Source of the DNA: an uncultured beta proteobacterium
GTDB lineage: Bacteria > Pseudomonadota > Gammaproteobacteria > Burkholderiales > SG8-39
Reading direction: 5' to 3'
Assembly: GCA_963719995.1 (NCBI GenBank)
Contig: CAVRDW010000005.1
Location: 2,169,975 to 2,233,974 of the forward strand
DNA length: 64,000 nt
Shown here: piece after piece, positions 26,179 to 27,750 of the stretch
Layout: each line of letters opens with the position of its first letter
Position numbering within the stretch: the stretch's first letter is position 1
The notes under the pieces: generated by a model
What the model was told of the DNA's origin: nothing
Databases searched by the model: none
What the model saw: only the letters and a program-made list of their open reading frames with translations
Program-made: the position numbers and the translations under genes

Positions 26179-26940
26179 ATGAACAGGAATCACATTTGCT
26201 CATGGCTATCTGCTTACGGTTCGATCGTGCTGCTTGCTCTGGTCGGCGCCTGTGCGAGCGGCGATCAGAAGAGCGGCGCGTACGCTCAGGAAGCATGGGC
26301 GTATTTCAAGAAGATGTGCGACGAAAAATCTGGCGAGCGAATTTATCAATCCCTTCGCGGTGTAAAGAATGTAGTGGTGACAAAGCCATTGCCACCAGCA
26401 ACAGAGAAGGATCTCTTCGACCAATACTGGTTTGGGGATCCATACAGCGCATCCGCTACCAGTCAACGGTCTGTTCATGCCGCCGGAAAGCTCGTGTACC
26501 CGAATGCGCCTATCGCGGAGAATAAGCTCGGCGCGGGTTTAGAGTTTGTTGAATTGGAGCTTGGTGAAGGTGCGTCGGATCAGCGCCGTCTCTTGCGAAT
26601 TTCCTATGATCCAGGAAGTCGAGACTACAGGGCAGTTGCCGCCACCAAACCTGTTAGCCGCTTCGCTCTGCAATGGCAAGACATATCCACCTCCGGCGAT
26701 CGCAAGTATTGGGTGGCCGCTAGCCGGCTGAGTGTCATCGATCTTAGCAACAACACGCTAGTTGCCGAGAGAATTGGTTACTTCATCGAAGCTGGATTTG
26801 GATCGACCGCCGGGCAAAGACGACCATGGTTAGCGTCGAAGGGACCAAAGACCACGTGCCCGTATGCCCATGATTGGGCAGACCGGTGGTTTGTATTGAA
26901 GGTACTAGGTCCGGGCGAGGAGGCTGCCGATGGCAAGTGA
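26179..26940 (+). CDS. Hypothetical lipoprotein (candidate partner or immunity protein of the RTX lipase)
   Basis: A signal peptide with the lipobox-like LLALVGAC is present. I recognise no other family. The region has low GC, and the gene overlaps the RTX gene start by 11 nt. Confidence 0.7.
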   Translation: MNRNHICSWLSAYGSIVLLALVGACASGDQKSGAYAQEAWAYFKKMCDEKSGERIYQSLRGVKNVVVTKPLPPATEKDLFDQYWFGDPYSASATSQRSVHAAGKLVYPNAPIAENKLGAGLEFVELELGEGASDQRRLLRISYDPGSRDYRAVAATKPVSRFALQWQDISTSGDRKYWVAASRLSVIDLSNNTLVAERIGYFIEAGFGSTAGQRRPWLASKGPKTTCPYAHDWADRWFVLKVLGPGEEAADGK

Positions 26941-27750
26941 GAAAATCGCGAGGCTATTGGAGTTTGCCAATCTTCAGTTGGCAGCCGAGGCATTCTTAAT
27001 TCGCGCAACGGACGGTGGAGCAATTCCAGCGGCAAGCGAAATACGCAACAGATTGGAAGAAGGCAATTTTCACGCAAGCCGATTTCTGCCCGAGCAGGCC
27101 GCGAAATTTGTTGATGGGAATGCAGGCTATTTGATTCTTGCTCAGTATCGCAACGATCCGCAACAGCCCGGCGCTTCAGGATTCTCAGGAACGCTAGTCC
27201 AATCCTTTTCCACTGGCGAATTGACGCTCTCGTTCCGCTCGACCGAATTCATCGACGATGCGGTTCGAGACACCATCTCCACTGGGGATCAGGAGATTAG
27301 GCAACTTGGTTGGGCGTTCGGGCAAATTGCTGAAATGGAGGCGTGGTACGCAGAACTGCGAGCCGACCCGAATCTGCTTGGTGGAAAGTCCTTCAATGTT
27401 ACCGGGTACTCGCTCGGCGGGCACTTGGCAACGGCCTTCAACATCCTGAGGCGCGAGGAATCGACTGAAACCCCAGTAATCTCAACCTATACCTTCAATG
27501 GCGCAGGTGTGGGCGACATCCGAAACGGCCGTCGCTTGACCGACATACTTGCTGACTTCAATCGACTCCGCTCCAGCGCTGACATAACAGCGACGGAAGA
27601 TTGGCTCGCCCTTTCTGTGGATGAACGCCAGTTGATTTCAAGCCAAGCGGCGAGTCGCGTCGCGGCGATCAATTCTGAAGCGGCTCGCTTAGCCACGTTG
27701 CAGCCGCGTGAGACCTTTCAACTCGGTTTGCCGCCAGCAGGCGTGCAAGC
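26930..27750 (+). other. Lipase/esterase-like alpha/beta-hydrolase domain of the RTX protein
   Basis: The nucleophile elbow is FNVTGYSLGGHLATAF (GxSxG, Ser codon 27410-27412). A later FGDSHSLVLL may supply the His. The exact family was not identified. Confidence 0.55.

Follow-up and report, generated by a model that had tools for sequence, protein, structure and literature searches.

The frpDC operon of Neisseria meningitidis encodes the lipoprotein FrpD 5′ of frpC, a repeats-in-toxin (RTX) gene belonging to a type I secretion system (T1SS). FrpD binds FrpC at the latter's N-terminal domain with a Kd of ~0.2 nM, and the function of FrpD is unresolved (PMC5233953). Bayer-Santos et al. suggested that FrpD/FrpC, as well as Smlt3024/Smlt3025 of a type IV secretion system (T4SS), are effector-immunity pairs (PMC6759196). 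Because the effector Smlt3024 is homologous to the N-terminal domains of large RTX proteins (PMC6759196), the heads of RTX proteins are linked to interbacterial toxins. We analyzed a 64,000-nucleotide (nt) stretch of contig CAVRDW010000005.1 from an uncultured beta proteobacterium, called the window throughout. In it, a gene for a predicted 253-amino acid (aa) lipoprotein, here termed the partner, overlaps the gene for a giant RTX protein with a lipase-like N-terminal domain, here termed the head. We suggest that the partner and the lipase-headed RTX protein are a toxin-immunity-like pair on a T1SS locus, a reading to which we assign a probability of about 0.55.

FrpD-FrpC is the closest published precedent for this pair and was not named in the original prediction made for this DNA. 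As in frpDC, a lipoprotein gene stands directly 5′ of a T1SS-secreted RTX gene, here with an overlap of 11 nt and with T1SS genes flanking the two. The systems differ in that no similarity of the partner to FrpD (PDB 5EDF) or Smlt3025 was detected by sequence or fold. Additionally, the head appears to be a lipase-like hydrolase, whereas the FrpC N-terminal domain is not known as one, and most members of the partner family are predicted to be anchored in the inner membrane, whereas FrpD sits as a lipoprotein on the surface of the outer membrane. The X-Tfe/X-Tfi pairs of the bacteria-killing T4SS of Xanthomonadales, in particular Smlt3024/Smlt3025, also have an upstream periplasmic lipoprotein-type immunity gene, but their secretion system is a T4SS that uses an XVIPCD signal, the fold of Smlt3025 is FrpD-like, and our PDB searches gave no similarity to the head or the partner described here.

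The lipase effectors of type VI secretion systems (T6SSs), known as Tle proteins, reportedly come with periplasmic immunity proteins, Tli, an arrangement credited to Russell et al. in 2013. In such pairs, a lipase or phospholipase with a GxSxG motif is encoded next to a gene for a periplasmic or lipoprotein immunity protein, extra copies and orphans are common, and some of the effectors (Tle2) are class-3-lipase-like. The loci of the present family share a lipase-like head encoded next to a gene for a predicted periplasmic partner, and extra partner copies and orphans occur among them as well. The locus in the window differs in having T1SS (HlyB/HlyD) genes, in carrying the lipase-like domain as the N-terminal head of a giant RTX protein, and in a partner that matches no Pfam family; no T6SS genes (VgrG, Hcp, PAAR) were present in the annotated flanks. 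Family I.3 lipases, of the Pseudomonas fluorescens/Serratia LipA type, likewise join an N-terminal lipase to C-terminal RTX repeats and are exported by a T1SS, but at ~470–620 aa they are far smaller and have no partner gene. Homology to LipA/PueA/PueB was not found, as the NCBIfam model PueAB (polyurethane esterase) aligned only with RTX repeat residues 1225–1292. Polymorphic toxin loci, as in contact-dependent inhibition (CDI) and Rhs systems, resemble this family of loci in their tandem arrays, in truncated toxin fragments each with an immunity-like gene, and in a compositionally distinct cassette. Here, in contrast, the variable module is at the 5′ (N-terminal) end with the displaced fragments upstream, and only one toxin family is involved.

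In the literature we found no description of the head family, of its partner or of the pair, and the RTX substrates of Xanthomonas hlyDB are listed as uncharacterized (PMC7777525). Toxin-immunity pairs as such are already known; new here are the families and an unusual secretion route for a toxin-immunity-like pair.

Partner and head of the RTX protein

The partner gene occupies 26179..26940 on the forward strand, as read from its open reading frame (ORF) and translation. Its product begins with MNRNHICSWLSAYGSIVLLALVGAC, in which a basic n-region and a hydrophobic core precede a lipobox-like VGAC. The N-terminus MNRNH...GSIVLLALVGAC has the features of a type II signal peptide, for which we sought [LVI][ASTVIG][GAS]C among the first ~35 residues, following a basic region and a hydrophobic core, and lipidation is predicted on this basis. 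The original prediction of a lipoprotein without a recognizable family agrees with these results, as searches of Pfam, NCBIfam and PADLOC gave no family match. A profile built from 23 partner sequences matched nothing among all PDB sequences at E ≤ 10, except an unrelated designed binder. More than 355 close homologues were found, none of them named, and a HMMER scan of 1.84 billion representatives returned 1,217 partner matches at E ≤ 1e-3 and 304 at E ≤ 1e-30 (representatives clustered at 50% identity). The homologues listed are mostly ~280–320 aa and align over essentially their entire length.

The conserved core of the partner spans approximately residues 35–250. Across 121 partner sequences the invariant positions are C47, G52, W84, R175, A180, C227 and F238, and no conserved Ser/His/Asp set was present. 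Because two cysteines are invariant and such a set is missing, the alignment suggests a disulfide-stabilized binding protein, not an enzyme. A lipobox was found in 18 of the 121 members, making the lipoprotein form a minority. About 100 of the 121 have a conserved MLELTG... start followed by two hydrophobic helices that are separated by a Lys/Arg-rich loop, from which we predict that most members of the family are anchored in the inner membrane by a two-helix hairpin. In both anchor forms the conserved domain would face the periplasm, since this orientation follows from the positive-inside rule and since the lipobox forms must be exported. The AlphaFold model of the partner (predicted local distance difference test, pLDDT, 87.6; predicted template modeling score, pTM, 0.82) is a mixed alpha/beta domain. 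Foldseek found no PDB structure similar to it at E ≤ 0.001, the best match having an E-value of 0.08, and FrpD was absent among the 50 PDB matches listed. Matches to PelC/LpoB-like structures were set aside as not meaningful (E ~0.1, TM-score < 0.31).

The partner and RTX ORFs overlap by 11 nt (26930–26940), as had been predicted and as the codons of the two frames confirm: the partner ends in GCC GAT GGC AAG TGA and the RTX protein begins with ATG GCA AGT GAG. A Shine-Dalgarno sequence, GAGGAGG, lies 6 nt 5′ of the RTX ATG. The identical overlap recurs in at least 12 metagenomic and three to four genomic relatives, and is therefore not a product of chance. We conclude that the partner and the RTX gene are translationally coupled.

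The head covers ~600 aa (26930..28726, forward strand) and is modeled as a class-3-lipase-like hydrolase with a helical extension; residues 1 to ~600 are conserved in many RTX proteins. The lipase elbow that had been noted in the RTX N-terminus, GYSLGGH, was located at residues 159–165 (27404–27424) and is invariant among heads, as are TFNGAG, H340 and H383. S161 is the evident nucleophile, and the two invariant histidines, H340 and H383, are candidates for the catalytic one. The original prediction had ended the feature at 27750, which cuts the head. The match of the head alone to Pfam Lipase_3 is weak, at 22.0 bits against a cut-off of 22, and the full ORF, at 20.3 bits, falls below that gathering score; E-values for the head ranged from 1.6e-4 to 5.5e-4, and 9 of 15 heads gave weak Lipase_3 matches. 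A profile of the head had no match among PDB sequences, so the link to class-3 lipases comes from the fold search only. The AlphaFold model (pLDDT 85.5, pTM 0.90) has an alpha/beta-hydrolase core, and the best PDB matches in Foldseek were to class-3 lipases, namely Yarrowia Lip2 and fungal enzymes (E 5e-4, probability 1.0), the low TM-scores reflecting an alignment of only ~215 of 650 residues. The helical insertion and the C-terminal helical extension had no fold match in PDB. Taken as modeled, the head would be a divergent class-3-lipase-like alpha/beta hydrolase.

Our metagenome scan recovered the head at 459 places. We considered whether it also serves as cargo of other secretion systems and rejected this, as the 256 shorter head homologues are RTX-bearing, head-only or partial, with no fusions to VgrG, PAAR or XVIPCD among them. 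Head-only proteins of ~450–770 aa with zero or one RTX repeat are common (loci L075, L085, L069 and many others), and some of these may be truncations or assembly breaks.

As assembled, the RTX ORF runs from 26930 to 31222 on the forward strand (1,430 aa) and contains fourteen RTX repeat matches in Pfam; HemolysinCabind matches in the RTX protein reached E-values of 4e-62 and 1.7e-44. The original prediction took the gene to end near 31.2 kb. Frame tracing, Pfam and comparison with L028, a contig from another sample that is 90–95% identical to the window, indicate that it most likely continues to 36447 (26930..36447, forward strand) and encodes ~3,100 aa. In the assembly this gene is present as fragments at 26930–31222, 31047–31712, 31607–33880 and 33994–36447. 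The full protein would consist of the head, RTX blocks, HCBP-related and He_PIG immunoglobulin (Ig)-like modules, and a C-terminal non-repeat tail of ~150 aa. With its GGxGxD-type repeats, its non-repeat C-terminus, and adjacent genes for an ATP-binding cassette (ABC) transporter and a membrane-fusion protein, it has the characteristics of a T1SS substrate. The HlyB-type T1SS ABC transporter is encoded at 24016..26110 on the forward strand (TIGR01846, E 3.9e-156; Pfam ABC_membrane and ABC_tran), and its gene is also broken in the assembly, into ORFs 24016–25920 and 25850–26110, with the split near the LSGGQ motif.

Relative to L028, the window is missing one base at each of 31164, 31212 and 31582 and has one extra base at 25883 (an A, in hlyB), 33863 and 33954. 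L028 keeps the frame at every hlyB/RTX break of the window, each being a single-base difference, and has one-base breaks of its own elsewhere, including one inside its copy of the partner gene. Since the window and L028 are interrupted at different positions, and each reads through where the other does not, the breaks point to errors of an error-prone long-read assembly and not to decay. We rejected the possibility that the RTX and ABC genes are pseudogenes, because every hlyB/RTX break amounts to a single base when compared with the in-frame L028.

Pairing, orphans and arrays

We surveyed the association of the two families from both sides. Metagenome loci were recovered by the head alone, at 33–86% identity, and 80 of them were scored with hidden Markov models of both families. 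In 78 of the 80, a partner gene ends between −8 and ~+120 nt from the start of the head, and for the remaining two, fewer than 240 nt upstream are available. The 11-nt overlap of the window was present in 12 of the 80 loci. From the partner side, 27 loci in a genome collection were inspected, and in 15 of these the head is directly downstream. One further locus (L014) has a second, diverged partner and a head 3 kb away, three end too soon to tell, and eight (L001, L007, L015, L016, L018, L020, L025 and L026) have no head within 5–8 kb. The neighbors of these orphan partners are unrelated, among them a hydantoinase, major facilitator superfamily transporters, PAS sensors, alpha-2-macroglobulin and ClpB. 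A single metagenome-assembled genome (MAG) contains one pair (L006) and two orphan partners (L018 and L020). We conclude that a head is nearly always accompanied by a partner, whereas a partner does not require a head.

Isolates in which the pair stands beside T1SS genes are Chitinimonas arctica, Xanthomonas axonopodis and Variovorax sp. PBS-H4, and a Neisseriaceae MAG has the pair on a short contig. HlyB-type ABC and HlyD-type membrane-fusion genes flank the pair in the window, in L028, in L030 and in L112, which is the Variovorax locus. No T6SS genes were found among the annotated neighbors in the surveyed loci.

Some loci carry more than one copy. Three tandem pairs were found in L027 and two pairs in L069, L075, L085 and L112; in L097, L017, L079 and L037 a partner and a truncated head precede a partner and a full head, and in L093 and L104 two partners stand ahead of one head. 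The Variovorax array comes from the complete genome of an isolate (LR594675.1, 2935–19722 of the locus) and reads hlyB, hlyD, a C-terminal fragment of a head, a partner, a 656-aa head-only protein that stops within the first RTX-like residues, another partner that is 38% identical to the first, and a 2,608-aa RTX protein with a head of its own. Within arrays, identities between partners and between heads were 38 and 56%, 66–69 and 86–90%, 75 and 88%, and 54 and 69%, respectively. Across 95 pairs, the divergences of partner and head correlate (r = 0.82), with conservation always lower in the partner, which has, for example, 31% identity where the first 210 residues of the head are 50% identical. 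The partner diverges faster than the head.

Distant partner homologues (24–26% identity; L024–L026) did not adjoin a different toxin gene; housekeeping or envelope genes stand next to them. In two single cases, a distant orphan adjoins a bacterial alpha-2-macroglobulin gene in a Niveibacterium MAG (L025, 7935–14908) and a Slam surface-lipoprotein assembly gene in Alysiella crassa (L024, 5215–8696). The partner profile also gave weak and incomplete matches (E 1e-4 to 0.08) 5′ of intact partners in L012 (5297–7003) and L007 (522–986), and these may be decayed older copies of the partner.

A toxin-immunity-like pair and its alternatives

In the mechanism that we propose, the flanking HlyB/HlyD system would export the giant RTX protein, whose N-terminal head would act as a serine (phospho)lipase-type hydrolase. 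The partner would be a nonenzymatic binding protein on the periplasmic side of a membrane, tethered there through a lipid in the window and, in most relatives, through a two-helix hairpin. Wherever the head came up against the periplasmic face of membranes, whether those of the cell itself or those of a sibling, the partner would bind and neutralize it. Phospholipase toxins act at the periplasm, as those of the Tle/Tli pairs do. We read the signature of toxin and immunity in these loci because the head almost never occurs without the partner, because the partner occurs alone and in surplus, and because arrays carry truncated heads. The faster evolution of the partner, its predicted periplasmic tether and the coupled translation further argue for this reading.

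The toxin-immunity pair put forward in the original prediction is the reading that this comparative genomics supports best, with the amendment that the lipoprotein form is not the prevailing one. The survey of co-occurrence suggested there gave near-obligate pairing from the head's side and not from the partner's. Lipoprotein homologues lacking a lipase neighbor, named in advance as evidence against the pair, do exist to some extent in the form of the orphans; they do not refute a toxin-immunity relationship, since orphan immunity genes are expected in such systems.

Several observations weigh against a toxin-immunity pair. Within the window's own clade the partner retains 45–66% identity and ~50 invariant residues, a level of conservation that many immunity proteins do not reach. 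The heads, unlike those of classic polymorphic toxins, are all of a single enzyme family. The 80 head loci include several near-duplicate contigs, so that the independent number is nearer 70, and orphans were called from flanks of 5–8 kb. We know of no route by which RTX proteins enter the periplasm of a target cell. T1SS substrates exit in a single step while unfolded and acquire their fold outside, with Ca2+ (PMC7777525), and because such a substrate bypasses the periplasm, the need for periplasmic immunity is left unexplained. In addition, Massilia sp. CFBP9012 (L031, 4775–6001) has a head with no partner within 6 kb, which is the only such head found apart from those on contigs lacking upstream sequence. 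The 1 kb upstream of it contains an IS3-type helix-turn-helix fragment, AT-rich sequence and a short ORF with a lipobox-like MSGGC, and this ORF may be what is left of a partner gene that was disrupted.

There are two possible ways around the problem of entry. Contact-dependent delivery might be brought about by the giant repeat body; alternatively, the N-terminal head, as the last part to exit, might pause in the periplasm of the producer in the manner of the retention modules of two-step T1SS adhesins. A broader proposal, which we hold tentatively and would place somewhat short of even odds, is that these loci represent a widespread and undescribed interbacterial weapon. Giant T1SS RTX proteins with an N-terminal lipase toxin would always be accompanied by a periplasmic immunity protein of new fold. 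The loci would be a mirror image of CDI and Rhs loci, in which cassettes of immunity gene and toxin head would be swapped at the gene's 5′ end, and head fragments displaced together with their immunity genes would collect upstream.

The partner might instead dock the RTX protein in the manner of FrpD, binding the head in order to hold or regulate the protein at the envelope and not to neutralize it. In one variant, the N-terminus, emerging last, would plug the outer-membrane channel in the way described for two-step T1SS adhesins, and the partner would control release. The architecture is that of frpD-frpC, in which the lipoprotein gene is 5′ and the RTX protein is bound through its N-terminal domain (PMC5233953), and obligate pairing with coupled translation would fit a 1:1 complex. 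The Ig-like He_PIG and HCBP-related modules of the RTX body are typical of surface proteins, and a folded 600-aa head that leaves last could serve as a stopper, judging from the two-step model (PMC7777525). The predicted inner-membrane anchor of most partner family members, however, excludes for these a surface tether like that of FrpD, and no similarity of the partner to FrpD emerged from the PDB profile search at E ≤ 10 or among the Foldseek matches listed. Orphan partners, extra copies and arrays with truncated heads would not be expected of a docking protein, no LapG/LapD-type genes were present among the scanned genes adjoining the locus, and the intact nucleophile elbow of the head would be needless in a mere plug. 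We consider docking or retention unlikely.

It is improbable, in our judgment, that the head acts on eukaryotic or environmental lipids, in virulence, defense against predation or nutrition, with the partner only protecting the producer from head that, during export, has leaked into its periplasm or stalled there. This would still explain the obligate pairing, it would agree with the lack of an evident entry route into bacterial targets, and the usual site of action of RTX lipases and RTX toxins is outside bacteria (PMC3034196). Neither the orphan partners without heads nor the extra, diverged copies of the partner would be explained by self-protection of this kind.

A lipase-specific chaperone or activator assisting folding, activation or secretion competence of the head, close to the foldase or chaperone offered as an alternative in the original prediction, has the poorest prospects. 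It draws on the obligate neighborhood and coupled translation and on a known arrangement in which membrane-anchored periplasmic foldases (Lif/LipH) are encoded beside genes for family I.1/I.2 lipases, but Lif is all-helical whereas the predicted partner fold is mixed alpha/beta, and the gene order is different. The partner matches neither Lipase_chap nor any Pfam family, its client would be an RTX protein of a T1SS and not of a type II secretion system, a substrate that bypasses the periplasm and folds outside with Ca2+ (PMC7777525) would not meet a periplasmic foldase, and the orphans and multiple diverged partner copies would be left unexplained.

Surroundings and significance of the locus

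The genes of the locus are ordered LuxR-type regulator, hlyB, partner, RTX gene, MNT/HEPN pair and hlyD. The regulator, a LuxR/NarL-type response regulator with Pfam Response_reg and GerE domains, is encoded at 23141..23923 on the forward strand, directly 5′ of the ABC gene, and is a possible regulator of the T1SS locus. The HlyD-type membrane-fusion protein of the T1SS is encoded at 37605..38959 on the forward strand, as placed by six-frame translation and motif coordinates, with a frameshift at ~37990–38027 that was seen in the six-frame translation only. Positions 1–968 of L028 match this hlyD at 82% and carry a Beta-barrel_AprE domain; in L028, unlike in the window, hlyD is found immediately upstream of hlyB.

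In the window, the interval from the RTX stop to hlyD contains, at ~36552–37177, a pair of genes for an MNT-type nucleotidyltransferase and a HEPN (DUF86) protein, and a HicB-like antitoxin gene is located at 22455–23057, just 5′ of the regulator. Toxin-antitoxin modules thus stand at both ends of the locus. A direct repeat of 133 nt, 94% identical between its copies, occurs at 23880–24012, covering the end of the LuxR-type gene and the region before hlyB, and at 37179–37311, before the hlyD unit. The stretch enclosed by the two copies runs from hlyB through the partner and the RTX gene to the MNT/HEPN pair.

Composition profiles reveal a low-GC block at 25600..29700, where GC content is 53–59% across ~25.6–29.7 kb compared with 64–69% around it. 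The 3′ end of hlyB, the partner, the head and the linker all lie within the block. Compared with L028, the window is 95–98% identical inside 26.5–28.5 kb and 72–84% identical on both flanks, which hints that the module of partner and head has a history of its own; the pattern is mosaic, and we do not lean on it. Horizontal acquisition as one simple cassette is only partly supported, as the low GC content fits and the identity to L028 is a mosaic and not a clean block.

The analysis defines two sizeable and previously unannotated families, the partner, with ~1,200 representatives at 50% identity, and the head. Members of both were found in Burkholderiales, in Rhodocyclales including Accumulibacter-type sludge bacteria, in Neisseriales and in Xanthomonas, and culturable carriers such as Variovorax sp. 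PBS-H4 and Chitinimonas arctica are available for testing. The general view of type I secretion is that it exports enzymes, adhesins, eukaryote-directed toxins and small bacteriocins. If the toxin-immunity reading is true, it would raise the question of how a T1SS-exported protein reaches the periplasm of another cell, unless the head pauses in the periplasm of its producer. Large T1SS substrates would then join the interbacterial arsenal, a role for which the FrpC/FrpD hypothesis has been the sole published hint.

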